A DNA stretch of 64,000 bases from an uncultured delta proteobacterium (GTDB lineage Bacteria; Desulfobacterota; Desulfuromonadia; Geobacterales; DSM-12255), in the NCBI GenBank assembly GCA_963787125.1, contig CAWBBV010000001.1:1-64000 (forward strand), in the 5' to 3' direction. The notes under the pieces are model-generated. The model searched no databases and had not been told where the DNA came from. It saw only the letters and a program-made list of their open reading frames with translations. Both the position numbers and the translations under genes were made by a program. Every line of letters begins with the position of its first letter. The first letter of the stretch is position 1. Shown here in pieces: positions 2,423-64,000 of this stretch.

Positions 2423-3712
2423 ATGGAAGCTGTAACGGATAGTCTGGCGTTGTTCAGACAGATGAAGGCATCAGTCAGGGGCTCGGAAAAACATCTGCTA
2501 GTCGGCATCGATGTTGCCAAGAACAAGCACCATGCTTTCTTTGGAACACCCAATGGCAGAACGCTACGCAAGAACATGATCTTTGACAACAGCTTACAAG
2601 GATTCGAGAATCTGCGCAGTTTAGCCGGAGATCTCAAGAATCAACATGGCCTGGTCGAGGTTGTGTATGGACTTGAGCCTACAGCCTCCTACCACAAGCC
2701 CTTAGCCGAATATCTGCTGCGACAGAAGGAGCAGGTTGTCTATGTATCCAATGTGGCCGTGGCAAAGAATCGAGCGCTACTGGATGGCCGTTGGGACAAG
2801 AACGACAAGAAGGATGCCGCCAATGTTGCCGATCTGGTGGGCCAGAGCCGCTGCCTCTTCTATGAGCTACCGCAAGAGAACCTGCGTGAATTACGCAGCC
2901 TGATTGGTTTCAGGATCAGGCTGAAGAAGGAAGAGCACGCACTGAAAATGCGGCTGAGAAATAATGTTCTTGCCCAGTTCTTTCCCGAACTGGACCAGCT
3001 CTACATCAAAGCAGGGCAACCGGACGACCTGATTCTTTCAATTGCCGAACATTGTCTGGACCCGAGGGAAATTGCCGGGATGGAGTTCGACGCCTTCCTG
3101 AAGCTCATTACAAAACGCAAGATCAGGATAGAACAGGAAAGACGTCTGCGCGAGCTTTGGGAGACTGCCGGAGAGTCCGTTGGTTGCCTTGTTCATGACG
3201 CCGCCAGATGGGAGGCCAAGAGTCTCGTCTGCCAGCTGAAGTCGATTCGTGAAACGGTCAAGGGTAATGAGCAGTTGATGGCAAAAGCAGCAAAGCAGTT
3301 TTCTGAATATGAGTGCCTTCTGTCTATTCCCGGATTCGGTCCGATTATTTCGGCCATGGTTCTTGCCGCCATCGGCAATCCTGTCCGGTTTCAGAATCAG
3401 GGACAGGTAGTGCGTCTGGCCGGACTGGACTTAAGTGCCGAGCGGAGCGGCAAGAACAGCAACAGTGCCAAGCCGGTGATCTCCAAGCAAGGGAAAGCGG
3501 CACTGCGTTACGCCCTGGTGCAAGCGGCAATGGTTGCCTCCACAGCGAATCCGGTTATCAGGACTTACTTTAGCAAATTAATCAGAGGTCGCGAGCTTGA
3601 GCGCGGCATCAACCTGAAGATGAAAGTCAAGCTGGCGGCAAAGCTTTTGGTTGTGGCCTGGACACTTATGAAGAAGAGAGAACCATTTAATCCTTCCTGC
3701 TTCACGGGATAA
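2423..3712 (+). CDS. IS110-family DEDD recombinase/transposase
   Basis: GIDVAK, GLEPT, KNDKKDA (DEDD); SIPGFGP; ERSGK catalytic-Ser motif; ALRYAL. Confidence 0.95.
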   Translation: MEAVTDSLALFRQMKASVRGSEKHLLVGIDVAKNKHHAFFGTPNGRTLRKNMIFDNSLQGFENLRSLAGDLKNQHGLVEVVYGLEPTASYHKPLAEYLLRQKEQVVYVSNVAVAKNRALLDGRWDKNDKKDAANVADLVGQSRCLFYELPQENLRELRSLIGFRIRLKKEEHALKMRLRNNVLAQFFPELDQLYIKAGQPDDLILSIAEHCLDPREIAGMEFDAFLKLITKRKIRIEQERRLRELWETAGESVGCLVHDAARWEAKSLVCQLKSIRETVKGNEQLMAKAAKQFSEYECLLSIPGFGPIISAMVLAAIGNPVRFQNQGQVVRLAGLDLSAERSGKNSNSAKPVISKQGKAALRYALVQAAMVASTANPVIRTYFSKLIRGRELERGINLKMKVKLAAKLLVVAWTLMKKREPFNPSCFTG

Positions 3713-49264: not shown

Positions 49265-52200
49265 ATGACTGTCATATTTTTTGATCTGGGCCCGGAGCAA
49301 TGGCGATTTCTCGCTGTACTGGAAGCTTTGGGGGGCACCCTTCATATTGACATTCTCGACAGCCTCGCGCCTTTGTCCGCCGGCCAACTGGTAGACATCC
49401 TGAAGAAGACTGCTGCCACAGGTACACTCATTCAGGAACAGAGCGGGCTGTTTTCTCTTGCCAATCCTCTTGCCACACCTTTGGCGAGAAAACTTGACCT
49501 GGTGAACAGGGGCGCAAGCCTCTCAGCTTTGGTGGACGTAATATATTCAGGAAAGATTGAGAACCGGCTCGACCCTCGCAGGCTCATCGCCCTTCTGGAC
49601 AGGTCAGGCAGGGATCTTGAGGCGGGCATGCTTGAATTTAGCCTTGTGGATCTGGAAAAAGAGCGCGGTTCTGATCTTGAGGTCATTCACACGCTCCTCC
49701 TGAGGGGAGTCAACCGGCTGAAGAACCTTGCCCTGGATCCTGATACAAGCTCAATTTATATTGCCCGGGCCTTGAAGCTATCCAATCTTTGCTTTGTATT
49801 GGGGCGGGGAATCGGTGAACTGGACGAAATCCTTGACACCGCCCAGCTGTTGGCAACCAGGCTGGGCGACAAACGTTCCCAGGCCCTGATCAATCTCAAT
49901 GTGGGGATGCTTTACTATTTTACCGGCCGGAGGGGGGAAGCCTTTTTAGTGTTGTCAGTTGGACTGGAAAAAGTCAACGAGCTGGGGGATGAGGATATCC
50001 TCTCCCAGTCCGCCGAATATATTGCCATTTTTTATTTTATGAAAGGTCAGTTCCGGGAGGTTATGAAGCACCTGGAGCATCTGGAAAATCTCATCGACTT
50101 TAATGTTGAGACTATTCAGACCATGACCTATATAGTTTTCAGCTACAGCGCTCTCTATCTGGGCCAGTTCCATCGCGCCTTCGGCTTCCTTGATTCAAAT
50201 CTCCGCATTGCCGAAGAGAACTCCAATAAGGCTCTGGCTTCTGTCTTGAGGAGCGTCCTCGGTACGACGCTGATACTGGTAAAAAGATACAGTGAAGCAG
50301 AACTCCATCTCAACCGGGCCAGACAAGAGTCACTCGATTGCGACAATGCCTTCGGCTACCACTATTCCGGCGGCGGCCTTGCCTTTCTCTATTTCACAAC
50401 TGGAGATTTAAGTAAAAGTTACGCGATCTACAAGGACACCGTGGAAAAGGTGATGCAGGCCGGACTGCTGCAGCAGTATTCATCCCCCTGGATTCTGGAA
50501 ATCTTTCACGAATTTCATCGCCGGGGATTCGAGCCCCTTCCGTACTGGAATTACCTCGACAACATGGAAATGACATTGAACGGAGTCAATGTTCAACTGA
50601 GGGGTGTGGCGTTACGGCTTAAGGTTCAGGACCGGATTGATCAGGGATTCAGGGAAAAGGGGCCGTTACTCGCCGACCTTGAGGCCAGCAGGACCTGTCT
50701 TGAAATCTCAGGGAACAATATGCAACTGGCTAAGACAGTCCTGGAGATTGCCCATCTGGAACTACTCCATAACAATAAGGACGCAGCACGGGGGTATGCC
50801 CAGGAAGCATGGCGTCTGTTCGGTGGCCATGCAGATGACTTTTTCCCTGATCAGTACAAGTTGCTGCTGGAGAAAAAACAGTTTTCTCCCGATCAACAAT
50901 CAGCCAGAAACGATTATCTCAGTCGCTACTTTGAGGAGATGGCAGCGATCAAAACCAGCCAGGGGCAGGAAGAGACGTTGAGCAAAGCGATTATCTCAAC
51001 GAACCGGTTTTTTGGCGCCGAACGTGGCGGCATCTTCTGGTTTGCCGACGGCAATTTCACCAGAAGCCCTGAACTCCGGGCGGTAAGCAATCTGACCAAA
51101 GAGGAGGTTGAGTCACCCCGCTTTAAACCATGCCTGGAACACGTATTCAAAGCCTTCCGTACCAAAAAGCCTCTGGTCGTCAGGAATGATCCAGTGGAGA
51201 CAGCAATGAAGGGCGAGAAGACCCGCTCCGTCCTCTGTTTGCCTTTTGAGGTTCAGGGAATGACTCGTGGCGTCATCTACCACGATAATTCGTACATGCA
51301 GGATGCTTTCGATTTCCTCGATCCGGCGATGATGGCATTTCTGGCCCGTCACACATCTGACATAATAGATTCCCTGCTGAACACCATGAAGATCAAGGAT
51401 GAAAAGGAGAAACTCTCACGGGAGCGGGTCACCTGTCAGCAGGCGTATAATAAACTGCAGCTTATCGCCGGGTCACAGGTCATGCGGGATCAGCTTGCCA
51501 TGGCCGGGCAGGTCGCTGCGACCGGTTCGAACGTGCTTCTTCTCGGGGAGACCGGAACAGGTAAAGGGGTGTTTGCCCGCTGGGTTCATGAAAACAGCCC
51601 GCGAACTAATGGTCCATTTATTGAGGTGGACTGTACGACAATTCCGGAGAATCTGGTGGAGAGCGAACTGTTCGGCTATGAGAAGGGAGCCTTTACCGGA
51701 GCGGTCAATCAGAAGCTCGGCAGGGTCGAGCTGGCGCATAACGGGACACTTTTTCTTGACGAAATCGGCGAGCTGCCGCTACATCTCCAGACCAAACTCT
51801 TAAAGACATTGGAGGAAAAAACCTTTGTCAGGATCGGGGGTGGACGGGTCATCAAGTCGGACTTCCGTCTGATTGCAGCCACCAACCGCAACCTGAAGAA
51901 TGAGGTCAGTATTGGTCGTTTCCGGGAGGATCTCTACTATCGACTTAATGTTTTCCCGCTGTCCATTCCCCCATTGAGAGAGCGAGCTGAGGATATTATT
52001 GAGCTGGCGAGGTATTTTGTTGAGTTCTACGCCAGAAAAAACGGCAGGACCGGCCTGGAACTTTCACGCGAAGACCTGAAGATCCTGCTGAATTATTCCT
52101 GGCCGGGCAATGTCAGGGAACTGCAAAATGTAATCGAAAGAGCAATTATTCTGGCAAAAGGCGACAAGCTGCTGATTCCCCTGTTTCCCACAGGCGCAGA

Positions 52201-52411
52201 GTCGGATTCCAGGGGAATCTTCGCTGACTTGCCAACGCTGGATGAGCTGCAACGATGCTACATCCTGCACGTATTCGAGCATACCAAAGGGAAGGTGAGT
52301 GGCCCTGGTGGAGCTGCTGACATCCTTGGCATGAAGCGGACAAGCCTTTACTCCCGAATGAGATCGCTGGATATGGATTTCAAGGGAAAAGGGAGCATAA
52401 ATGGAGAGTAG
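49265..52411 (+). CDS. Sigma54-dependent activator with long TPR-like N-terminus, GAF, AAA+ and HTH
   Basis: GETGTGKG, ESELFGYEKGAFTGA, FLDEIGE, WPGNVREL, GAADILGMKRTSL. Confidence 0.92.
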   Translation: MTVIFFDLGPEQWRFLAVLEALGGTLHIDILDSLAPLSAGQLVDILKKTAATGTLIQEQSGLFSLANPLATPLARKLDLVNRGASLSALVDVIYSGKIENRLDPRRLIALLDRSGRDLEAGMLEFSLVDLEKERGSDLEVIHTLLLRGVNRLKNLALDPDTSSIYIARALKLSNLCFVLGRGIGELDEILDTAQLLATRLGDKRSQALINLNVGMLYYFTGRRGEAFLVLSVGLEKVNELGDEDILSQSAEYIAIFYFMKGQFREVMKHLEHLENLIDFNVETIQTMTYIVFSYSALYLGQFHRAFGFLDSNLRIAEENSNKALASVLRSVLGTTLILVKRYSEAELHLNRARQESLDCDNAFGYHYSGGGLAFLYFTTGDLSKSYAIYKDTVEKVMQAGLLQQYSSPWILEIFHEFHRRGFEPLPYWNYLDNMEMTLNGVNVQLRGVALRLKVQDRIDQGFREKGPLLADLEASRTCLEISGNNMQLAKTVLEIAHLELLHNNKDAARGYAQEAWRLFGGHADDFFPDQYKLLLEKKQFSPDQQSARNDYLSRYFEEMAAIKTSQGQEETLSKAIISTNRFFGAERGGIFWFADGNFTRSPELRAVSNLTKEEVESPRFKPCLEHVFKAFRTKKPLVVRNDPVETAMKGEKTRSVLCLPFEVQGMTRGVIYHDNSYMQDAFDFLDPAMMAFLARHTSDIIDSLLNTMKIKDEKEKLSRERVTCQQAYNKLQLIAGSQVMRDQLAMAGQVAATGSNVLLLGETGTGKGVFARWVHENSPRTNGPFIEVDCTTIPENLVESELFGYEKGAFTGAVNQKLGRVELAHNGTLFLDEIGELPLHLQTKLLKTLEEKTFVRIGGGRVIKSDFRLIAATNRNLKNEVSIGRFREDLYYRLNVFPLSIPPLRERAEDIIELARYFVEFYARKNGRTGLELSREDLKILLNYSWPGNVRELQNVIERAIILAKGDKLLIPLFPTGAESDSRGIFADLPTLDELQRCYILHVFEHTKGKVSGPGGAADILGMKRTSLYSRMRSLDMDFKGKGSINGE

Positions 52412-52609
52412 CCAGGGCCATGAATTTATTTCGTTGCATGAATGGAAAATATTATCCGCTCGGCGGAGATCAGTGCAGCCGGGTTTTTTAACTGCCTGAA
52501 ATCGGGAAAATAGATTGAATTCAGTTATACTTATAAGGCTAATTTGGGTCAGTTGTTTTAATTAGAAATTAAGGCCATCCTTGCGGCGGTCAGCAGCAGA
52601 GGCAACAGC

Positions 52610-55600
52610 GTGGGCAGATTAGCCATAATCCTGACATATTGCATCTTTTTTCTCTCCGGAGCAGCAGCCCTGATCTATGAAATAGTCTGGAGCCGTTACT
52701 TGAGCCTTGTTTTCGGCGGCTCGCACCTGGCTGTTACCACCGTGCTTACGGTGTTTATGGGGGGTCTGGCTCTGGGCAGTTACTTAATCGGCAGACGCGT
52801 CGATCGCTCTCACCAACTACTGCGGCTTTATGGTTGTCTGGAACTGGGGGTCGCAGCTGCAGCCCTGCTGTTTGTCGGCCTTTTGCAAATCTATCCGCCG
52901 ATCTATATCAAGCTTGCCCAACTGGTTCCTGAATCCACCCTCTACCTCTCCGCTATTCGCATCACCTTTGCCGTCATTGCCCTGATCATCCCCACAACCC
53001 TTATGGGCGGTACTCTTCCGGTTCTAACGGCATTCACAGCCCGCCTTTTGAGCGGTCCGGGGGTGCGCCTCTCCTTCCTCTACGGCTGCAATACCCTCGG
53101 CGCTGTCTGCGGTGCCGCGGCAACCGGTTTTGTCATGCTGCGCAGCTTTTCCATGGGTATAACCCTGGCTACCGCGGTGGGAATAAATATCTGCGTCGGT
53201 TTGGCCGCTTTTGCCCTGCAACGACTGGTAACAACGGCACCGGCTGCAGAGGCAGCAGCGGAAACGGCCATGGCAAGAGACGATCTCGATTCGGTTTCAA
53301 CGGGGCCTTTGCCTTTCAGGCTGGTACTCTGGGGTATCGGTGTGAGCGGTTTTTGTGCCATGGGGTATGAGGTTCTCTGGAACAGAATTCTGAGCATTGC
53401 CGTTGGCGCCAGCGCCTACGGCTTCACCCTGCTGCTCATGGCCTTTCTTTCTGGCATCGGCCTTGGGAGTGCCGCTTATGGCTTCCTGGGCAGGATCTCC
53501 ACCAGACTGCGCCGCCGGCCTCTCTCCTTGCGCACTGCTGTTACCGCCTTCGGCGCGGTCCAGCTGACAATAGGTCTGACAGCTTTTTTGGCAACGGTGC
53601 AGTTTCGCTATCTCCCTACCTATGTGGCGTTTCTGCATGATTACTTTCTTGCCCTCTTCCCCAAAGTTGATCAGTTCCAGGTAATACAGCTGGCCAATTT
53701 TGTGCTCGCCTTTGCCATCATGTTTATCCCGGCTTTTTTCATGGGGGTGGCCTTTCCCCTTGCCGGAGAGATCCACAGCCGCTGCCGCAGACAGGTCGGC
53801 GCTGCTGTTGGTGAGCTGCTCTCCTTCAACACAGTGGGAGCCATTCTCGGCGCCGGGGTCAGCGGATTTCTCCTTATCTACCTGCTCGGCATCCAGCGCT
53901 CGCTGCAGATCCTTATCCTGATCAACAGCGGCTACGGCCTGCTGCTGATAGTTGCTGCCAAAGGCGACAAAACCCGGCTGCGGCTGGCAATGCTGCTTGC
54001 TTTGGCCGCACTCATGGTGCCGATTGCCGCCCCTGCCGGGTGGCAGCTCTGGGATCCGAAGCTTTATGCCGTCTACCAGTCCAATAAACCCGAAGCCTAC
54101 GGAACTCCTGAAGAGGTCAGCGAGATGCTGGCCAATCTTGACGTCCGTTATTACAGTGAAGGGTCACAGGCCATTGTCAGCGCCGTCCAGTCGGCAGATA
54201 CGCTCTTTTTTATCACCAACGGCAGGGTGGAGGCTTCCAACACCCACCAGGACATGCAGTGCCAGTATGTCCTCGGTCATCTGCCCATGCTGCTCCACAA
54301 AAAGCCGCGGCAGGTCTTTGTTCTTGGTACCGGCAGCGGCATGACCCTGGGGGCGGTTTCGGTGCATCCAGGCGTGGAGAAGATAACCCTGGCTGAAATT
54401 GAGCCGGGGGTGCTGGGTGTGGCCAGGGTCTTCGGCATAGACAATCACTACATCCTCAACAAACCCGACCCGCGGCTGAAAGTTGTTTTCAACGATGGCC
54501 GTAACCACCTGCTGACGACCAAAGACCGCTTCGACGTCATTACCGCCGATCCGGTCCACCCCTGGTTTAGTGGCGCCGGTTATCTTTATTCAACCGAATA
54601 TTTCCGCCTTGCCAGCCAGCGGCTCAATCCCGGCGGCATTATCTGTCAATGGCTCCCCCTATATGAGCTGACTGCCGAGAATCTGCAATCGGTGGTCAGA
54701 ACAATCCGTGAAAACTTCGCCTATACCATGATCTGGGTAACCCACTACGATGCCGAGATTATTGCCAGCAACTCACCTATAATCATCGACGAAGAAGAGC
54801 TGGGGCGGCGTTTTGCAGTTGCAGGCATTGCCGAAGACCTGCGCCAGATCAGGATGGGGAGCCCGGAAGACTTCCTCAGTTATTTTGTTATGGGGAGTGA
54901 AGGCGCCAAAGCTTACAGCCGGGAAGGGCGGATTAATACCGACGATAATCTCTATCTGGAGTTCTCCGCTCCCCGCAGCATCGGCCTGGAGTATCTGCGG
55001 GGTGCCAACCTGGCAGGTCTTCTCCGGCACCGGGAGAAGCTGCTCCCTTACCTGCGCCGCCCGGTGAGCTCCCCGGCCGGCAACCTTCAGACGGCCCGCT
55101 GGGAGGCTAATCATCAGGCAGCGCTGCTGGAAGACAAAGTCCATCTGCTTGATGTCGCCGGCAAGCAGATGACTTACCAGTATACGGACATTGCCACCGA
55201 ACTTGACAATCGCTACCCCCGTTATGCGCCGTGGCGTTTCACCAAAGAGGAGTCGGGTGATGAAAGAGGCGGGGGCACAACTGTTTTGCAGGAATTGGAA
55301 ATTCCCTTGCTGGATGAGCATGAAGCGCCGCTGAAAGGGGCATTAATGGCGGTTCTCGTCCGCAAGAACAGTCGCCAGGCGCGGATTTTTTTCGTTGACG
55401 ATAACACCCGGACAGTCTTCGGCAAGCTGCGGGTAAAGGGATCGGGAAAAGACGCCTACATAGAGAAATTCGTTGCGACTGTTATGCAGGATGCCAAGAA
55501 AATCTACGCTGCCGAGGCGGCACAGGCGACAGCCACCGGGAAGATTGCCCCCTCAATGCTGACCGTATTTCCGAAGATTAAAACGCTGGTGGAGGCCAGG

Positions 55601-55615
55601 ATAGATCGGGAGTAA
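52610..55615 (+). CDS. Fused MFS-like membrane domain / spermidine-synthase-like protein
   Basis: SGAAALIYEIVWSR, NTLGA repeats; VLGTGSG, AEIEP, DGRNHL, FDVITADP. Confidence 0.88.
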   Translation: MGRLAIILTYCIFFLSGAAALIYEIVWSRYLSLVFGGSHLAVTTVLTVFMGGLALGSYLIGRRVDRSHQLLRLYGCLELGVAAAALLFVGLLQIYPPIYIKLAQLVPESTLYLSAIRITFAVIALIIPTTLMGGTLPVLTAFTARLLSGPGVRLSFLYGCNTLGAVCGAAATGFVMLRSFSMGITLATAVGINICVGLAAFALQRLVTTAPAAEAAAETAMARDDLDSVSTGPLPFRLVLWGIGVSGFCAMGYEVLWNRILSIAVGASAYGFTLLLMAFLSGIGLGSAAYGFLGRISTRLRRRPLSLRTAVTAFGAVQLTIGLTAFLATVQFRYLPTYVAFLHDYFLALFPKVDQFQVIQLANFVLAFAIMFIPAFFMGVAFPLAGEIHSRCRRQVGAAVGELLSFNTVGAILGAGVSGFLLIYLLGIQRSLQILILINSGYGLLLIVAAKGDKTRLRLAMLLALAALMVPIAAPAGWQLWDPKLYAVYQSNKPEAYGTPEEVSEMLANLDVRYYSEGSQAIVSAVQSADTLFFITNGRVEASNTHQDMQCQYVLGHLPMLLHKKPRQVFVLGTGSGMTLGAVSVHPGVEKITLAEIEPGVLGVARVFGIDNHYILNKPDPRLKVVFNDGRNHLLTTKDRFDVITADPVHPWFSGAGYLYSTEYFRLASQRLNPGGIICQWLPLYELTAENLQSVVRTIRENFAYTMIWVTHYDAEIIASNSPIIIDEEELGRRFAVAGIAEDLRQIRMGSPEDFLSYFVMGSEGAKAYSREGRINTDDNLYLEFSAPRSIGLEYLRGANLAGLLRHREKLLPYLRRPVSSPAGNLQTARWEANHQAALLEDKVHLLDVAGKQMTYQYTDIATELDNRYPRYAPWRFTKEESGDERGGGTTVLQELEIPLLDEHEAPLKGALMAVLVRKNSRQARIFFVDDNTRTVFGKLRVKGSGKDAYIEKFVATVMQDAKKIYAAEAAQATATGKIAPSMLTVFPKIKTLVEARIDRE

Positions 55616-55670
55616 GTGCTGGCGGTCGGGAGTTTATGGGCGGCAGACGGGAGTCAAAGCAGGAATGAGT

Positions 55671-56867
55671 TCACGTCAACGCCCGACGCTGCCTTTTCAG
55701 ATATCCGGCAAATCTCCCAATGCTGCCGTATCTGTGCAGAAGCAGGACGATCAGCTTCAAGCGGAGCTGCCATGGCGGGCTGCTCTGTTCAAGGGGAAAG
55801 CGGAGTTTCACCCCGTCAGCCGAGAACGCATCCAGTGTATGAGCAAGCAGGCGCTTTCCTCCTTCAAGACGGCTTTTTCTTCCGGACACGTCGAACGAGA
55901 CAAGCTTTGCAAAATGTCTGCTCACCTCAGCGTCATCTTTTGGCGTCAGCGGCGTATCAACACCAAACAGCTCACCTGTTGCAAAGAGAAAAGCATTCAC
56001 CGGCAGCAAAATCCCGTTATCCCTGCAGAACTTTTCGATCTCACGCCAATCGGCTGAAGTCCCGTAACGTCTGCAGAGCCAGGCGAAATGGAGCATCTGC
56101 TTCAGATCCAGCATACGCAGCTTGTAGTTTTCGTGGGATATTTCCGAGTGGAGGATGCAGTGGAGCAGTTGATGGCTTGGCGACATGGCAGCAAAGGAGA
56201 GCCCGTCACTCTCCCCCATGGCGCATGTTTGCCAGACATCACGGCTCGCCAGCAGCTGGAGATCACGTACCTCAAAGAGATCCCGGTGAAGCTCCAGGTG
56301 CACCGGCATCCCCTCCCTGACAAGGGGGGCATAATGCTTTGCCTTCCCGTTTTTCCAGAGCGCCACCATTTCCACATAGCTATCCGGGACGATATAACCT
56401 TCTGTTAAAAGCAGGGCGACAGCTTCGTCAGCCCGGCTCTCCGGAACGAGCAGGTCGATATCCATCATGAACCTGTCACCCAGATTCCCGTAAAGCCCGG
56501 TCAAAAGGGCTGCGCCACCCTTGAGGGGCATGGCAGGAATTCCGGCGCTGGCAAGGGTAGCGATAATTTCTTTCAGCTGACCAAGAATTGCTGCGTTGCG
56601 CTCCAGGTTCAGTTGATGCATTGCCTCCAGATACTCAAGAAACTGCTCTGGAAGGAGATTCTGCACCCCCTTGGCAAACACTGCGCTGTAAAGGGCTGGA
56701 GCAAGATTGGCGCAGTTGGCGAGAAAAGCTACCGCTTCCCAGTCGATCCGGTGGCTGTCATGCCCGGTGCAGAGCGGTTTAACAGCCGCTTCGTCCGTAA
56801 AGGGGGATAGTAGCTGGCATAGCAGAAGAAGAGACTGCGGAACCTTAATGCGTGCGGCAACGCTCAC
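55671..56867 (-). CDS. Nucleotidyltransferase family protein (NTP_transf_5-like)
   Basis: PLKGGA, R.MMDIDLLV, LELH motifs. Confidence 0.85.
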   Translation of the reverse strand: MSVAARIKVPQSLLLLCQLLSPFTDEAAVKPLCTGHDSHRIDWEAVAFLANCANLAPALYSAVFAKGVQNLLPEQFLEYLEAMHQLNLERNAAILGQLKEIIATLASAGIPAMPLKGGAALLTGLYGNLGDRFMMDIDLLVPESRADEAVALLLTEGYIVPDSYVEMVALWKNGKAKHYAPLVREGMPVHLELHRDLFEVRDLQLLASRDVWQTCAMGESDGLSFAAMSPSHQLLHCILHSEISHENYKLRMLDLKQMLHFAWLCRRYGTSADWREIEKFCRDNGILLPVNAFLFATGELFGVDTPLTPKDDAEVSRHFAKLVSFDVSGRKSRLEGGKRLLAHTLDAFSADGVKLRFPLEQSSPPWQLRLKLIVLLLHRYGSIGRFAGYLKRQRRALT

Positions 56868-58048
56868 TTCATCACCCCAGTCCCCTCCAGCAGCGTCAAC
56901 CCCTCGGCGGTCGATGCGTAGGTCAGGGCGTAGCGGTCAAGAGCCGCCAGCCAGTCGATGATGGCACTGACCCGCGTCTCATCAAGATCCGGGAGCTGAT
57001 AACCGGCGTCAAGGATTCTGCTCAGGCTCTGAACGATGCTCAGCCGCTGCGTTGTCCCACTGGTTCCTGCAATGAACTCGGGGAAGATGAGCGCATTGGC
57101 GTGGCAGCTGCTGCCGTTTTGGGCAAAGCGGATTGAGTCCGGCAGGAGGTACCTGATCCTCTGGCCGTCAAAGCGGATATGATCCTGACTGGTCGCCAGT
57201 AGTGGAAAGTCGGGGAGGATTACCGGCCAGCTCCCCTCCTTGATCCCCGGGGCAAGGGGCATGGCAAAAATAGAGCCGTCAGTAGCATCAATCACCAGCG
57301 GCTCATCGCTGACAAGCCCGTAACCTCTTGCAAGGAGCGCCATGGCAAAGGTGCTCTTACCCGCCCCGGATCTACCGGCAAGGAGCAGGCTCCTGCCGTC
57401 AGAACCGCAGACAGCGCTGCCGTGGATGGTGAGCAGATGGGGCTGCTTTTGGTAGGCAAAAACCCGCAGCTGCCCGTAAATGTTTGGCAGAAGCCGCTTC
57501 GCAGCCAGAGGCTCACCGCTCTCCTTACCATTCATCAGAATCTGCCAGACATCCCCTGCCGCCTCAATCGTGACGACAAGCTTCACTGTGTCAGCGGTTG
57601 CTCCAAGAAAGGGGGCGATAAACGGCGTGATCCAGCGCTGCAACAGCTCTTCGTCACCAACAATGGTAAAAACCGTATTAAGCAGAGAGTAGCAGGGGAA
57701 CTCATCAGAAAGGGGAAACTCGCACTGCGGTGAGTTCAGGTAATCGGGGTATTCGCCATCCAGCGGCTCGCTCCCTGCCAGAATGGCGGCCAGTTCCATA
57801 ACCCCCGGCAGCGACTCTTCTGGCAGTTGTAGATCCATGGCAAGATCATGGACGCTCTCCCCCTGCTCAAGGCGCAGCAGCACCACGGTAGCTGTCCGGT
57901 CAAGGCCGTAAAGCTTTTTGCTTTGCTTTGAAAAAAGCACTGACTCTTCCCCCAGAAGGAAAAGAGTCAGGCTATTGTTAAGTGATAATTTTTCACAGAC
58001 GGGCAGAGAAATTTTACAGCCCCCCTGAATCAGACGGAGTTGATGCAC
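56864..58048 (-). CDS. HPr-kinase-related kinase with N-terminal PqqD/RRE-like domain
   Basis: EESVLF...KLYGLDRTATVVLLRLEQGESVHDLA (RRE-like); IHGSAV, GRSGAGKST, LVSDE; exact start uncertain. Confidence 0.75.
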   Translation of the reverse strand: MHQLRLIQGGCKISLPVCEKLSLNNSLTLFLLGEESVLFSKQSKKLYGLDRTATVVLLRLEQGESVHDLAMDLQLPEESLPGVMELAAILAGSEPLDGEYPDYLNSPQCEFPLSDEFPCYSLLNTVFTIVGDEELLQRWITPFIAPFLGATADTVKLVVTIEAAGDVWQILMNGKESGEPLAAKRLLPNIYGQLRVFAYQKQPHLLTIHGSAVCGSDGRSLLLAGRSGAGKSTFAMALLARGYGLVSDEPLVIDATDGSIFAMPLAPGIKEGSWPVILPDFPLLATSQDHIRFDGQRIRYLLPDSIRFAQNGSSCHANALIFPEFIAGTSGTTQRLSIVQSLSRILDAGYQLPDLDETRVSAIIDWLAALDRYALTYASTAEGLTLLEGTGVMK

Positions 58049-58211
58049 ACGCCCTCTTTGCCGTAGTTGGCGACATCAACAGATAAACCCCAACCGCACT
58101 CCCGACGGCATATTTGCCAAAGCGCTTGATGAACTCCCGCCGCACCATTTCAGGGGATTTCTCAGCATCAGCCCCTTCTGTTTTACTGTTTTCATTCGCT
58201 TCAATCATCAC
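58014..58211 (-). CDS. Putative RiPP-like precursor peptide with twin-arginine leader
   Basis: 65 aa; AGGAGG RBS; VRREFIK + hydrophobic stretch + KRACA + STPSDSGGL tail; sits directly before the RRE-kinase. Confidence 0.65.
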   Translation of the reverse strand: MMIEANENSKTEGADAEKSPEMVRREFIKRFGKYAVGSAVGVYLLMSPTTAKRACASTPSDSGGL

Positions 58212-58219
58212 AGATCCTC

Positions 58220-58615
58220 CTATTTTGCCACATCACTTCGGATAGCAGGTTTTTTGACAGCTTGCTTCATGGTTACAGTCACAGGTGTGGACAATCCCCC
58301 TACGAAACCATCCCTTTTAGCGGCAACCGCAAAGGTGAGCTGCTCTGCGCTGCCAGTTTCAGTAAAAAGGTAATCAGTCTGCGACCCGTGGAGGTCAATC
58401 CAGCGGGAATCAGGAAGCAGCCTGTCCCCGCTCTCAAAATATACCCGGTAACTCGCACCTAGTCTTACCGGCCTCCAGGAAAGCATAACCCCGTCACCCG
58501 TTTGTACCCCTTTGAGCGCAGTAACTTTCTCAGATCCGTGCCTGTGCCCAAACGGAGACGCAAACAGACTGGTTGCCGTGAAGATCATCAATATTGTTAA
58601 AATCAATTTTTTCAT
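58220..58615 (-). CDS. Small secreted fibronectin-III-like protein
   Basis: Signal peptide (SLFA); V.LSW.PV..GASYRVY; F.VAA....G..S pattern. Confidence 0.65.
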   Translation of the reverse strand: MKKLILTILMIFTATSLFASPFGHRHGSEKVTALKGVQTGDGVMLSWRPVRLGASYRVYFESGDRLLPDSRWIDLHGSQTDYLFTETGSAEQLTFAVAAKRDGFVGGLSTPVTVTMKQAVKKPAIRSDVAK

Positions 58616-58632
58616 CTACCCCTCCGGTAAAG

Positions 58633-59496
58633 CTAGTTGTTGATTACAGTTTTGAGTCTTCTGCCTTCCTGATCGTAATAGGTGAGGCCGGGATTGCCGG
58701 GGATAAGCAGTGAAACCCCTGAACTGCCACGGGCAGCGTCAACATCGGTTTTGATATAGAACCTGACCACCAGTTCGGCAACAGCACTGTTTGGGGTGTA
58801 ATCCCAGCTGAAGTAGAACTTTTTGGTACGGCTGCCGTTGAATGCCCAGTCTCCGGCTACTGAGGAGAGCGGAAGCAGACTGCCTGATGTGGCAAGCTTT
58901 TCACCATAGCTGTTGCCGCAACTGCCAGCAGCTTTGCCGCTGCAATCAAAGATGGCAACCTCGGAGAGGTAGCTGGCATCATACCCCTCCAGAGTCCAGG
59001 AAATGGTGGCCTGGTTATTTCTCGTCATGACAGGAACCGTTGCTGCGGCAAGCACAGCCGGCATCCGCTGCTGCGCCTCTGCAAGCGGGGCGGCACTGTT
59101 GGTCAGCCAAGCGGTAAGCACCGGCGTATTTGTGGAGCTGGATGACACCTGCAACAGCGCACTCTTTGTCCCCTGGCTGGCAGGTTTGAAACTGACTGAA
59201 ACCGTGCAGCTAGCGTGGGCCGCCAGAGTGCCGGTGCAACTGTGCGGATGAAGGTCAAACTCTGCCGGATTTATCCCGGCAAGGGCAATACCGCTTACGT
59301 TCATGGCTGTCCCGGTAAGATTTGTAATGGTAAAATCCACCGGTGTTGAATCATTTCCAAGGGCTGTCACCGGAAACTGCCTCACCGCCGGATAGATGGC
59401 GATCTGGCTGTCCTGAACAACATCGGCTGCCGATGCCGGAGTGACAGATGCGTTGCAACTGAATATCAGAAATGCTGCAAGAATATACTTTTTCAT
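58633..59496 (-). CDS. Secreted protein: Ig-like (choice-of-anchor D/ASH-like) domain + conserved C-terminal domain
   Basis: Signal peptide; FTITN...SCTVSVSFKP...GTKSA; paralogous to the C-terminus of the upstream giant protein. Confidence 0.75.
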   Translation of the reverse strand: MKKYILAAFLIFSCNASVTPASAADVVQDSQIAIYPAVRQFPVTALGNDSTPVDFTITNLTGTAMNVSGIALAGINPAEFDLHPHSCTGTLAAHASCTVSVSFKPASQGTKSALLQVSSSSTNTPVLTAWLTNSAAPLAEAQQRMPAVLAAATVPVMTRNNQATISWTLEGYDASYLSEVAIFDCSGKAAGSCGNSYGEKLATSGSLLPLSSVAGDWAFNGSRTKKFYFSWDYTPNSAVAELVVRFYIKTDVDAARGSSGVSLLIPGNPGLTYYDQEGRRLKTVINN

Positions 59497-59507
59497 AGTT
59501 CTCTCCT

Positions 59508-62500
59508 TTACGGTGCAACCGCATGCTTCAGCCGTCTGCCGCTGAGGTCGTAGTATTCAGTGCCTGATTGCAGCAGGTTCCCAGGGATCAGGAGCGAAAG
59601 GCTCCCTTTTCCGGCGGCATCGTCTGCTGCGGTTTTACGGTAGAAGCGGATGACCATGTCAGTTGCCGATGCCGGAGCCGTGAAGGTGTAACTGTAGTTG
59701 AACTGATTTGAGGTAACACCGTTATAACTCCAGCTGCTTGCGTTTGTGCTGACGGCCGGGAGATTTCCCGAGTCGGAAAAATTGCTGGCAAAGCTGTCAC
59801 CGCAGGTTCCGGCTGGAACCCCTGCACAGTTGAACAGCGCAATCCGTGAGAGGTAATCGTCGTCATAGCCAAGCAGCGACCAGGTGATGGTGTACTGCTG
59901 ACCGGGTTGGATCGTGGTTGGAATATTCAGTGCTGAAAGCACCGACGGAATCCGTCTGGCGGCCTCCTCCTGAAGCGTCTCATGGTTATAAAGGAATGCT
60001 GTGACTGTCATGCCGTCATGGGGGATCTCAAGCTGGGCTGATTTTGACCCCTGGGTAGCAGCACCCGGACAGAACTTGACGCCAACTGTACAGCTTGCGC
60101 CAGCGGCAACTGCCTGGCTTGAGCAGTTATCCCCCGAAATTGTGTACTCGGCAGCATCATTCCCCCCTTTGCCCACAGTGCCAAAGGTAACGGAAGCAGC
60201 CGATCTGTTGGTGACAGTGAACGGAATCTCCCCGCTACAGCTACCTTGCGCCACCACACCAAACAGATGGCGATCAGGCGAAACTGCAATGGCGGTATCA
60301 AGGGCTGAGAGGCTGCTGATGTTGGCAGCGGCGGCAACCGTCATGGTAAAGCTCTGGTTGGCATTCCCCTGGCTGTTTGTGGCAATGATGAAAATGGCAA
60401 AACTTCCACTTACATTGGGTGTACCGGAGATGGTGGCCGTGCCGTTGCCATTGTCATGGAAGCTGACACCGGCTGGCAGAGCGCCTGTACGTTTAAGCGC
60501 AGCCGTGGGGTTGCCGGTGGCGTTTACGGTGAAGCTGCTGCCGACGCCGTAGTTCCAGCTGGCGCTGTTGGCGGATGTGATGGCAGGAGCCGCCAACGCA
60601 GCAGCAGTGGTAAAGGTCTGGTCAGCGCCATTGGTTGTGCCGGAGAGGCTGCTGGCAACGGCACGGAAATGGTACGTGGTTAAAGCTGTCAGGCCGGAGA
60701 CAGCAAGGGAGACCGGAGTATTGGTCACGCCGGAGACTGTTGCTGGCGAAGCCGCAATACAGCCGCTGCCGTAGGAGGCGGTCGCTCCATACTCGAAACA
60801 GACCGTACTGTCGGCATTATTGGCATTCACCGTCCCGTTCATGGTGGCGGCGGAGGTGGTAACGCCACTGACTGCATCGGTGGTGACGGTCGGCACAGGA
60901 ATGTAAGTAAACATGATCATCTCGCTACTTATGCCGCCTGGTGAAGTGACGACCACGCTATTGTTTGGCCCCGTGCCAGCCGGTGTGGTGAGTGTAATCT
61001 GAGAGTCACTGACAACTACAACATTCGAAGCTGCTGCTCCGCCAATGGTGACTCCGGTCGTTCCGGTGAAGCTCGTGCCGGTGATGGTTACGCTGGTTCC
61101 CCCGGCAGCAGTCCCGCTTGACGGCGAGATACCGGTAATGACCGGAACCTCAGTTAGATCATTGATGGTAATGGTGAAGGCCTTCTCGAAGTACAGCCCA
61201 CCCTGGTCAGTGCTGCGAACCCGGACAGAGTAACTGCTCTTGACCTCATAGTTCGGGCTGTTGGTTATCCGCAGATTATCGACGCTGATATTGAAGGAGG
61301 CGTTGTCGGTGCTGCCGGTGCCGCTGACGAGGGTGTAGGTGAAGGTGTTACCTGCATCCGGGTCGGTGGTGCTCAGGGTGCCTACGGTGGAGTTGGCCGC
61401 CACGTTCTCGTCGATTGAGCTGGCAGAAAAGCTGATGTCGGTCGGGGTAGAGTTATAGGTAAACAGGCCGGCGCCAGTACCAGTGCCGCCGGGTGTGGTG
61501 ACCGCCACATCTCTGACTCCGAGCGTGCCGACTGGCGTGGTGGCCGTTATAGTGGTGGCGTTGACTACCGTTATCCCGGCGGCGGCACTGCCGCCAATGG
61601 TGACGCTCGTCGCCCCGGTGAAGTCGGTGCCGCTAATGGTGACAGTGGTTCCGCCAAGAGGAGATCCGCTGGCAGGTAGAATGCTGCTGACAGTCGGCGC
61701 AGGAATGTAGGTGAACAGGGTAGTCCCGCTACTGAAACCGCCCGGTGATTTAACGACCACACTGTTGTTTGAGCCTGTGCCAGCCGGTGTAGATAGGGTA
61801 ATCTGAGTGTCACTGACAACTATTACGTTAGTTGCTGCTGCTCCGCCAAAGGTGACTCCGGTCGTTCCGGTGAAGCTCGTGCCAGTGAGGGTTACGCTGG
61901 TTCCCCCGGCAGCGGGTCCACTTGGCTGCGAGATACTGAAAATGACCGGAGTCTCCAGCAGATCATTGATGGCGATGGCGAAGGGCTTTTCGAAGTATAA
62001 TCCGCTCTGATCGGTGCTGCGGATACGGACGGAATAGCTGTTTTTCACCTCGTAGTTGGGACTGCTCGTGATCCGCAGGCTGCTGCCGCTGATGTTGAAG
62101 GAGGCGTTGTCCGTAGATCCGGCTCCGGACACAAGGGTGTAGCTGAAGGTTCCTCCATCCGGGTCGGTGGTGCTCAGGGTGCCCACGGTGGTGTTGGCAA
62201 TGACGTTTTCGTCGATTGAGCTGGCAGACAGGGCGATGTCGGTTGGGGCTGCGTTGCATGCTCCGGTCGTGAAGGTGGCATCCGAGCCGTTGCTGGTGCC
62301 ACCGGTGCTGATCCCTTTAGCCCGGAAGTGGTAGGTGGTGTTGCAGGTTAGTCCCGACACAGCTGCCGAGACCGCTGTATTCGAAGCGCCGCTAACCGGG
62401 CTCTGGCTGGCGGTTATTGAACTGCCATAACCGGTGGTCAACCCGTAGTCGAAGGTAACGGTGCTACTGTAGCCGTTGGCGTTAACCGTGCCGTTCAGGG

Positions 62501-64000
62501 TCGTGCCGGTGGATGTGATGCTTGTTGCCGTGCCGGTAGTGGCAGTAGGAGGATTCGTGGTAGTCACTGATACGGTGTTGGTGTAGTACGTATGATGCAA
62601 GCCGCTGTACCCGCGAACCCGGTAATAATAAGTCGTTCCTGCGCTGAGCCCTGTCACGGAGTAGGTAAGCAGATTCCCCACATCCAGACCCCGATACCCG
62701 GTAACCATGGCTGTAAACGCTGTATCAGTGGCCACATCCAGCAAGTACCCGGTTGCGCCGGTCACTGTGTTCCAGTTGGCACTGAACCCGCTTCCGGTTA
62801 TGCCCGAGGCGGCTGTGGCCACCGGCAATGTCCCCAGGTATTCGGTGGCGCCTTTTTCGGACGTCGCACCGGCGCGTAGATAGCCGCGCCCATCCACAAA
62901 CACACTGCCGTTGCTACTAACCGGGTTAATCGCCAGGCTGCCTGCATTGGGCAAATGAGATGAGACATACCCGCCGTTTCCGACCAGGTTGGCCAGGCTG
63001 GCGTTTTGCGGGAACCCTTCGGTTCCCCGTACGTCGCCGGTGCCCCAGGTATAATAGGCGTCATTACTTCCTACGGAACCGATCAGATTGTAGCCGCCGG
63101 ATATAAACGTAAAAGTGATTCCTCCTGAATAGAGACCGGTTGGGTCAAAATAAATATCCGAATCTCCTCCGCCCGTGGTTGCAACGTTCCCGGCCACCAC
63201 CGTATTTTTCAGCGTAAAAGTGCCGCCCGGCGTCGGAATGCCTGAATTATTATACACCGAGAGCCCTGCTTCCCAGGAATTGCTGCCATTAGTGGAATAA
63301 TTCTTGGTAATGGTGCAATTGATCACGTTGAAGCTGCTGTTGCCAAAATGGGCAACCACGCCCTGATTGTCCGAAGTGTTACCCGAAAAGGTACAGCCTT
63401 CCAGGGTTACGACTTTCCCAACGGAACGTTCATGCAATGCACCTCCCTGGTAAGCCGAATTACCTTCAAACGTACTGTCCACTACGGTCAGGGTGCCCAG
63501 GTTATCAATGGCCCCGCCGTACCCCTGTCCAGGAGGGAGATTAGGACCCATAGGTACTGAATTCTGGTAAAAATAGGAACGCAGAACTGTGAGGGTGGCT
63601 GTTGCTGCCACACTAATGCCTCCTCCGTAGGTACTACTCATTGAGTGATTGAGCGAACAATTGTTGATCTTGCAGCGGTCCAGGGTCAAATTGGCTAATC
63701 CGCCCAGGCGAATTCCTGCTCCGGTCTCCGAAGCCACGGCGCTCCGTCCGTTGCTGATGGTAAGGTCAGAAATGGTGATTGTCCCGGCAGTAATGTCAAA
63801 CACGCGCACCGCATTGTTACCGTTAATAGTAAGGCTGGCAACGCCCGGACCTTTGATGGAAAGGTTTTTAGCGATGGATAACGTTGAGGAGAGGGTAATG
63901 GTTGCCGGATAGGTGAGGTTGAACACAACCGTATCACCCGCCGTAGCATTGGTGATGGCTAGACGCAGACTGCCCGCACCGGAATCTGCCGTAGAGGAGA
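59508..64000 (-). CDS. Large surface/adhesin-like protein (beta-helix with GSLR.AI motif, FN3-like, cadherin-like, IPT/TIG, Ig repeats), 5' end beyond window
   Basis: Frame open to the window edge (DSGAGSLRLAITNA); GGAI repeats; NYEVK cadherin-like; P.SG...GGT.VTITGT IPT repeats. Confidence 0.85.
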   Translation of the reverse strand, partial: SSTADSGAGSLRLAITNATAGDTVVFNLTYPATITLSSTLSIAKNLSIKGPGVASLTINGNNAVRVFDITAGTITISDLTISNGRSAVASETGAGIRLGGLANLTLDRCKINNCSLNHSMSSTYGGGISVAATATLTVLRSYFYQNSVPMGPNLPPGQGYGGAIDNLGTLTVVDSTFEGNSAYQGGALHERSVGKVVTLEGCTFSGNTSDNQGVVAHFGNSSFNVINCTITKNYSTNGSNSWEAGLSVYNNSGIPTPGGTFTLKNTVVAGNVATTGGGDSDIYFDPTGLYSGGITFTFISGGYNLIGSVGSNDAYYTWGTGDVRGTEGFPQNASLANLVGNGGYVSSHLPNAGSLAINPVSSNGSVFVDGRGYLRAGATSEKGATEYLGTLPVATAASGITGSGFSANWNTVTGATGYLLDVATDTAFTAMVTGYRGLDVGNLLTYSVTGLSAGTTYYYRVRGYSGLHHTYYTNTVSVTTTNPPTATTGTATSITSTGTTLNGTVNANGYSSTVTFDYGLTTGYGSSITASQSPVSGASNTAVSAAVSGLTCNTTYHFRAKGISTGGTSNGSDATFTTGACNAAPTDIALSASSIDENVIANTTVGTLSTTDPDGGTFSYTLVSGAGSTDNASFNISGSSLRITSSPNYEVKNSYSVRIRSTDQSGLYFEKPFAIAINDLLETPVIFSISQPSGPAAGGTSVTLTGTSFTGTTGVTFGGAAATNVIVVSDTQITLSTPAGTGSNNSVVVKSPGGFSSGTTLFTYIPAPTVSSILPASGSPLGGTTVTISGTDFTGATSVTIGGSAAAGITVVNATTITATTPVGTLGVRDVAVTTPGGTGTGAGLFTYNSTPTDISFSASSIDENVAANSTVGTLSTTDPDAGNTFTYTLVSGTGSTDNASFNISVDNLRITNSPNYEVKSSYSVRVRSTDQGGLYFEKAFTITINDLTEVPVITGISPSSGTAAGGTSVTITGTSFTGTTGVTIGGAAASNVVVVSDSQITLTTPAGTGPNNSVVVTSPGGISSEMIMFTYIPVPTVTTDAVSGVTTSAATMNGTVNANNADSTVCFEYGATASYGSGCIAASPATVSGVTNTPVSLAVSGLTALTTYHFRAVASSLSGTTNGADQTFTTAAALAAPAITSANSASWNYGVGSSFTVNATGNPTAALKRTGALPAGVSFHDNGNGTATISGTPNVSGSFAIFIIATNSQGNANQSFTMTVAAAANISSLSALDTAIAVSPDRHLFGVVAQGSCSGEIPFTVTNRSAASVTFGTVGKGGNDAAEYTISGDNCSSQAVAAGASCTVGVKFCPGAATQGSKSAQLEIPHDGMTVTAFLYNHETLQEEAARRIPSVLSALNIPTTIQPGQQYTITWSLLGYDDDYLSRIALFNCAGVPAGTCGDSFASNFSDSGNLPAVSTNASSWSYNGVTSNQFNYSYTFTAPASATDMVIRFYRKTAADDAAGKGSLSLLIPGNLLQSGTEYYDLSGRRLKHAVAP

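Follow-up and report, generated by a model that had tools for sequence, protein, structure and literature searches.

Among described peptide-modification systems, the closest to the locus considered here are the linear polyphosphorylated peptides (LPPs), which are encoded in Paenibacillus alginolyticus by lppA-K-B-S-D-N and which the accessible text of their description calls restricted to Bacillota (Popov et al. 2026, PMC13381572). In these peptides phosphate is carried on core Ser3, and 18 residues separate the leader Tyr-16 from Ser+3. The phosphorylated lasso peptides pseudomycoidin and paeninodin, with the HprK-type serine kinases PsmK and PadeK and the NTP_transf_5-type enzyme PsmN, form a second related group, as far as the available portions of the two reports go (PMC6993621, PMC9266682). 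The addition of one or two hexoses (+162 Da) to the phospho-Ser depends on PsmN, which uses a DxD pair and whose direct action the authors leave open (PMC6993621). The locus in question lies in a 64,000-nucleotide stretch from an uncultured delta proteobacterium (assembly GCA_963787125.1, contig CAWBBV010000001.1, positions 1 to 64,000; referred to as the window), where three genes encode a small precursor peptide, an HprK-type kinase fused to a recognition element (RRE) of the kind that serves peptides ribosomally synthesised and modified after translation (RiPPs), plus an NTP_transf_5-type nucleotidyltransferase (NTase). On balance, this trio appears to be a three-gene, LPP-like peptide-modification unit whose product may be exported by the twin-arginine translocation (Tat) system.

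The trio resembles the LPP clusters, as these are set out in the accessible portions of PMC13381572, in lacking a cyclase and in combining an RRE, an HprK-like kinase and an NTP transferase. Its precursors have a conserved N-terminal part and a very variable tail, with a Ser just behind a signal-peptidase-type site, and six of them show the same spacing of 18 from YxxP to Ser. In contrast to the LPP clusters, the RRE is fused to the kinase rather than discrete, the leader is of twin-Arg type with a hydrophobic h-region, there is neither a dedicated SipW-type (archaeal-type, LppS) peptidase nor an MsbA pump, the LPP leader motif YxxPxVLxHQxIxFETxxS matches no trio locus, and the trio loci are found in Gram-negative phyla. 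The trio thus works like an LPP system, but is not a member of that group; and because linear, cyclase-less RRE/HprK/NTP-transferase peptides have already been described, it is a variant and not the new RiPP class that the original prediction, made from the DNA of the window, had proposed. With the published pseudomycoidin and paeninodin systems it shares an HprK-type Ser kinase with a His-Lys-Asp-acid set and an NTP_transf_5-type enzyme with a DxD pair; it differs in having no macrolactam cyclase or B2 protease, in a window precursor that is not Ser-terminal, and in kinases and NTases that fall in other clades. The locus is not a lasso cluster.

The same three activities are combined in the HPr-rel-A cassette (TIGR04352 kinase, TIGR04353 PqqD), which is uncharacterised. 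The fused kinases are sister to the HPr-rel-A kinases, and several split cassettes have twin-Arg open reading frames (ORFs) upstream; the trio differs in that its kinase scores 76.1 bits against TIGR04352 (cut-off 200), its RRE is fused, no stand-alone TIGR04353 protein accompanies it and the precursor belongs to a different family. Twin-Arg ORFs of other families occur near the split RRE and kinase cassettes at L112, L113, L115, L151, L152, L156 and L159, in some cases within loci of exopolysaccharide type. In the open-access literature searched, neither the fused nor the Tat-leader form was found described; the supplements of PMC13381572, which may list Gram-negative clusters, lie outside that search.

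The three overlapping minus-strand genes are real and conserved, with the predicted overlaps of 35 and 4 bp confirmed as called. For the peptide gene (58014..58208, minus strand), which belongs to a conserved family, the reading as a precursor stood, while the 65-residue form starting at GTG 58211 gave way to a likelier 64-residue form from ATG 58208, which has AGGAGG 8 nt upstream and corresponds to a 64-residue database protein. The 35-bp overlap with the kinase gene (56864..58048, minus strand, 394 residues) depends on the kinase start at GTG 58048, most close homologues beginning about 11 residues later; the 4-bp overlap joins the kinase gene to that of the NTase (55671..56867, minus strand, 398 residues). 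Consistent with the prediction, no lasso cyclase, B2 protease, radical SAM enzyme or ABC exporter was found among the eight flanking-region proteins scanned (49265-64000), and the flanking genes of the window hold no MsbA-like exporter.

The kinase N-terminus is an RRE by fold and profile. The AlphaFold 2 model of this PqqD-like domain (residues 19-94; 57767..57994, minus strand) consists of strands and three helices and matches, at middling Z values, the sactipeptide enzyme 5wgg (Z 7.1) as well as TbiB1 and the lasso B1 protein 6jx3 (both Z 7.0, with a root-mean-square deviation (rmsd) of 3.3 over 72 residues), and the family profile matches TbiB1 (E 5e-9), 6jx3 (5e-7) and LppB (7e-4). The window kinase matches PqqD at E 0.008 over residues 35-73; PqqD is matched by 55 of 100 kinase-family members and TIGR04353 by 10 of the 100 (E<=0.001), the window kinase not among the latter. 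The rest of the protein has the HprK/PEPCK fold (HprK Z 11.9, rmsd 2.5, 127 residues aligned) and keeps H209, K231, D248 and E249, which match the His-Lys-Asp-Asp set of the lasso kinases with Glu249 in place of the last Asp (PMC9266682). The transferase matches NTP_transf_5 at E 2.9e-41, and an alignment of 25 members shows its K116, D136, D138 and H194 to be invariant; a sequence comparison of the NTase family with solved structures gave no match. All three domain assignments accord with the original prediction. A close kinase homologue comes from a Desulfuromonadales metagenome-assembled genome. A single-sequence genome scan with the kinase gave 0 of 93 candidates, and the matches listed from a scan with the kinase-family alignment, mostly HPr-rel-A and lasso kinases, were used as controls.

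The window precursor is made up of a variable N-region, the twin-Arg motif RREFIK (residues 23-28), a hydrophobic stretch ending in LLMS (43-46), A-C-A (53-55) and a nine-residue Ser-rich tail ending in GGL, with Ser56 and Ser59 as candidate acceptors. Across the family the pattern is [RK]RxF[LIM]xxxG followed by a hydrophobic stretch, frequently with AxA after it, then a Ser at positions 31-36 (counted, as are all such positions below, in residues after the first Arg of the twin-Arg motif) and a tail of 0-176 residues. A reading as a lipoprotein modified at Cys54 was rejected, there being no lipobox and the Cys not being conserved.

Searched as a single sequence, the window peptide finds only itself; Pfam holds no family for it, and the clusters returned by an Atlas search are all unnamed (0.96, with recognition falling short of the mark). 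The family emerged through its position, a related small ORF lying directly upstream of the kinase in metagenome loci. A hidden Markov model (HMM) of the six closest peptides matches members in Campylobacterota and Gammaproteobacteria, an HMM built solely from 13 distant peptides picks the window peptide out of 38,715 ORFs (E 2.1e-9), and the HMM of all peptides has a single match in the whole genome (E 2e-18; next 0.44). The original prediction hinged on conservation of the small ORF beside homologous kinases, and this is borne out: the family adjoins 25 of 30 distinct fused kinases (independent E-value below 1e-3, from an HMM iterated on the same loci), a partial 26th reaching 1.1e-3 and the other four lying on short contigs. 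The independent tests are the 13-distant-peptide HMM and held-out DNA, where the peptide occurs in 8 of 9 fused plasmid loci (a test that drew on 10 of 30 plasmid records) and is absent from a lasso cluster control. At other kinase loci the family was met in 6 of 104 cases, three of them shortened or frameshifted fusions, leaving three true matches among about 100 non-fused loci. One unrelated partial match (L011) was left out. At L171, L177, L032, L145, L173 and L175 each kinase is accompanied by two or three copies of the precursor, which share leaders and differ in their tails, L145 also having two NTases; tandem copies on one contig accompany a frameshifted kinase at L009/L010, and L006 retains only the C-terminal half of the precursor.

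A Ser within positions 31-36 is present in 36 of 39 peptides, compared with 23 of 39 at 25-30 and 10 of 24 at 37-42, and in one of nine Tat-like proteins of the window genome; the earlier choice of a tail Ser as the likely target is supported. The motif [YWF]xxP occurs in 14 of the 39, and among 11 peptides with [YF]xxP at position 14 a Ser follows 18 residues on in six and 17-20 residues on in nine. Two of the L032 peptides end in Ser.

The predicted complex between peptide and kinase scores 0.89, the best of three controls scoring 0.00, and the mark used is reached by 116 of 157 solved pairs and by 2 of 215 mismatched ones. At least 82% of contacts recur between runs, and the partner has a predicted local distance difference test (pLDDT) score of at least 71. 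The best modelled pairs join RRE residues 45-48, on the last RRE strand, to the peptide LLMS; leaders in solved RRE complexes likewise pair with the last RRE strand, according to the accessible text of PMC13381572. The modelled interface also takes in kinase residues 207-210, 227 and 249-251 (including H209, S227 and E249) and reaches along the peptide as far as Pro58, which fits a placement of Ser56 at the active site, although a Ser56 pair is not among the listed pairs.

Based on these observations, a sequence of steps can be proposed. In the cytoplasm the RRE would bind the leader by its hydrophobic part, LLMS serving in the model as an added β-strand. The HprK-type domain would then phosphorylate, perhaps several times, the Ser 31-36 residues after the first Arg, either Ser56, as spacing and model suggest, or Ser59, if the Ser-Asp motif seen in the closest relatives is the guide; that the precursor is the substrate of the fused kinase is highly probable. 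The NTP_transf_5 enzyme would in turn cap the phosphate, probably by means of a hexose or else a nucleoside monophosphate, and there is a somewhat better than even chance that it acts on the phosphopeptide at all. Phosphorylation of Ser, as originally predicted, is retained, while the accompanying nucleotidyl transfer is not preferred: a shift of +162 Da is no less likely than addition of a nucleoside monophosphate, because PsmN, the only tested homologue with an effect, was needed for hexose, as the accessible text of its report has it (PMC6993621). By analogy, then, the likely product would be a peptide phosphorylated on Ser56 or Ser59 and possibly hexosylated as in pseudomycoidin. Finally, the leader would act as a Tat signal, the housekeeping Tat machinery exporting the modified precursor and the signal peptidase LepB cutting after A-C-A, with the outcome of either a free nine-residue peptide or a product that stays anchored in the membrane; for this last step the chances are evenly poised. 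The product probably acts in the cell envelope.

Several points weigh against this account. Every chemical step is deduced from sequence and models, and the complex prediction does not say which Ser meets H209; moreover, since RRE-leader complexes have been solved (5v1u, 6jx3, 9x8z), its score may reflect likeness to these rather than binding. Three of the 39 peptides have no Ser at 31-36, the L167 peptide ending at position 31; the peptides are kin, so that the Ser counts overstate the case, and the window peptide is one of those without YxxP. The count of 25 in 30 rests on an HMM iterated on those very loci, for 5 of the 30 fused loci the DNA examined contained no NTase, the short contigs limit all absence counts, and the trio NTases lie in a different clade from the lasso-linked ones. 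In addition, the accessible text of PMC13381572 reports that deletion of lppN was without effect in the heterologous host B. subtilis.

The export step turns on the leader, whose resemblance to a Tat signal, judged from its sequence, could allow it to replace a dedicated exporter and protease; their lack is explicable in this way. The window peptide has RREFIK, an h-region hydropathy of 1.67 and A-C-A, and across the 39 family members RR is found in 35 and KR in 4, AxA in 27, and the mean hydropathy of the h-region is 1.0-2.4. The curated Tat-signal model TIGR01409 is passed at its cut-off by 3 of 21 members, and tails of 0-176 residues are as expected for a signal and its cargo. The window genome encodes TatC, as do five of five other carriers, and a single LepB, on another contig; TIGR02228, the model for SipW/LppS-type peptidases, has no match in this 99.96% complete genome and matches 8 of 14 control genomes, and none was found at related loci, where the check had no SipW-type positive control. 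A rather unlikely alternative is that the peptide is indeed the substrate, with the twin-Arg motif and hydrophobic stretch serving only as an enzyme-recognition leader; once modified, the precursor would remain in the inner membrane or cytoplasm and either escape cleavage or be processed by an unlinked protease. That the RRE site in the model coincides with the h-region suits this alternative, as do the KR in 4 of 39 peptides, the missing AxA in 12 of 39 (close relatives L001/L007 and L002 among those lacking it), the tails of 0-3 residues that are too short for cargo, and the weak scores of the window peptide on Tat models (TIGR02811 E 0.009, no TIGR01409 match); TatC, being common (11 of 14 control genomes), says little by its presence. 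Tat export draws its support from the invariance of the second Arg and the n/h/c layout kept across four lineages, from the 176-residue tail at L109 and the Gly-rich tails, which suggest exported cargo, and from the lack of any dedicated exporter or peptidase with the trio. The L109 protein (2319-2954), of about 212 residues, has the same leader and Ser and is encoded between kinase and NTase; whole proteins may therefore be substrates as well.

The fusion is widespread but patchy. It occurs in 2 of 23 genomes of the family and 11 of 401 of the phylum, five of these, the window genome included, matching over the full length, and also in Campylobacterota, Gammaproteobacteria and Alphaproteobacteria. 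Relatives of the trio are carried on replicons of Ensifer, Rhizobium, Mesorhizobium and Leisingera, and Sinorhizobium meliloti Ak57 has a trio (LZK74_19180/19185/19190; L185:4443-7126) with a Gly-rich precursor, LZK74_19190. An NTase lies within 3.5 kb of the fused kinase in 25 of 30 loci; neither B2 nor cyclase was found at any of the 30, many of which are short contigs that limit absence counts, compared with 22 and 25, respectively, of 104 other kinase loci, and ABC matches occur at three, two of them at locus edges. In FastTree trees thinned to 28 'other' NTases, every third 'other' kinase and 21 motif-filtered fused kinases, the 21 fused kinase domains form one clade (Shimodaira-Hasegawa (SH) support 82), as do 24 of 27 partner NTases (SH 99).

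It is very unlikely that the enzymes act elsewhere, on the large surface proteins, on the separate lasso precursor of the genome or on an intermediate of sugar or polysaccharide type, with the peptide as regulator or passenger. Such targets are at hand: the genome has a separate lasso-type cluster (C20:3312-10703, L195), beside a 1535-residue surface protein, in which an ABC exporter, a B2 protein above cut-off, an RRE, a sulfotransferase-like gene, two HprK-like kinases, a cyclase-like gene and a candidate precursor were seen and no NTase was found, and NTP_transf_5 genes also occur in polysaccharide clusters, as at C6:111584-112819, a second such gene without a kinase, which groups with the lasso-linked NTases. 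Yet the cluster on C20 comes with an RRE and kinases of its own, the kinases falling outside the fused clade; housekeeping genes are often all that surrounds the trio (L108, L143, L148, L149, L174); the peptide is the sole constant neighbour of the enzymes; and the complex score again speaks for the peptide as substrate.

In the window, the trio follows surface-protein genes, as originally predicted, a context that extends to only a subset of loci. It is preceded, at gaps below 20 bp, by genes for an fn3-like protein with a signal-like N-terminus (58220..58615, minus strand, 131 residues; counterparts 5' of the peptide in L005 and L009), a secreted-type protein with choice-of-anchor D and an unannotated C-terminal domain (58633..59496, minus strand, 287 residues), and a large surface protein of about 1530-1560 residues whose start lies just beyond the window (59508..64000, minus strand) and which has TIG, cadherin, fn3 and choice-of-anchor Q/Z/D domains. 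A shared domain of about 155 residues forms the C-terminal end of both larger proteins (58636-59100 and 59511-59990) and is modelled as an immunoglobulin-like (Ig-like) sandwich (pLDDT 89; a generic fold, best Z 9.6, rmsd 2.9, 117 aligned) with invariant R13, R115, R152, R153, Y42, Y46, S132, a Trp and two Cys. The domain has no Pfam family and no Atlas match above 0.78; 14 long homologues were found, several from Magnetococcales. Of 180 loci searched, 8 distinct ones from at least three lineages have the domain, in each case upstream of the trio (the window, L002/3, L005, L007, L009/10, L026, L142, L145), and none of the others does; it occurs nowhere else in the window genome, and a search of 400 other genomes of the phylum gave no match.

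The idea that the domain recognises the phospho-tail is guesswork, based on the types of residue and the order of the genes. In one quite unlikely scenario the modified peptide is an envelope anchor or ligand and, in this sub-lineage, the phospho(glyco)-Ser tail is bound by the Arg/Tyr-rich domain of the secreted proteins encoded upstream, which are tethered or sorted in this way. The restriction of the domain to the trio site, its conserved Arg, Tyr, Ser and Cys residues and the Ser-Asp tail shared by the peptides of most domain loci speak for such a role; the loci were chosen by kinase, which biases the co-occurrence, the fold is generic, and 24 of 30 fused loci have no such domain, so that the trio can do without it. 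A broader and improbable version makes the trio a general device, in which the RRE reads a Tat signal peptide and, ahead of export, a peptide or protein is phospho-glycosylated at what will become its N-terminus, the product of this lineage being a tag or anchor read by the Ig-like domain on giant surface proteins. If true, surface attachment would here be peptide-based, in a way that has no parallel in the open-access literature searched.

Other features of the region were also recorded. Three phage tail-collar genes and a GNAT gene lie directly upstream of the large surface protein, beyond the window (C1:64240-66827); the collar triplet was rejected as a general partner, none of two other carriers searched having collar genes. 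On the opposite strand, a 1001-residue fused MFS/spermidine-synthase-like gene (52610-55615, plus strand) converges on the NTase gene and was not seen beside the other trios examined, and a 1048-residue sigma-54 activator with TPR-like, GAF and AAA domains is encoded at 49265-52411 (plus strand). Promoter and terminator scans of the window gave shuffle-level results; a 14-pair hairpin with a T-rich tail lies within the RRE coding region (57940-57970, minus strand), such sites being no commoner than in shuffles. A short ORF at 3431-3577 is repeated in at least eight places of the genome and is probably part of an insertion element.

These results supply a candidate substrate and acceptor Ser for a large orphan family of RRE-fused kinases and NTases (681 representatives at E<=1e-30, kinase-only relatives included). 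They suggest a RiPP leader that doubles as a Tat signal, with housekeeping machines replacing the exporter and protease, and indicate that a stripped-down LPP-like pathway occurs in many Gram-negative bacteria. With only three genes and a copy in Sinorhizobium meliloti Ak57, the trio makes the role of PsmN/LppN-type enzymes directly testable.

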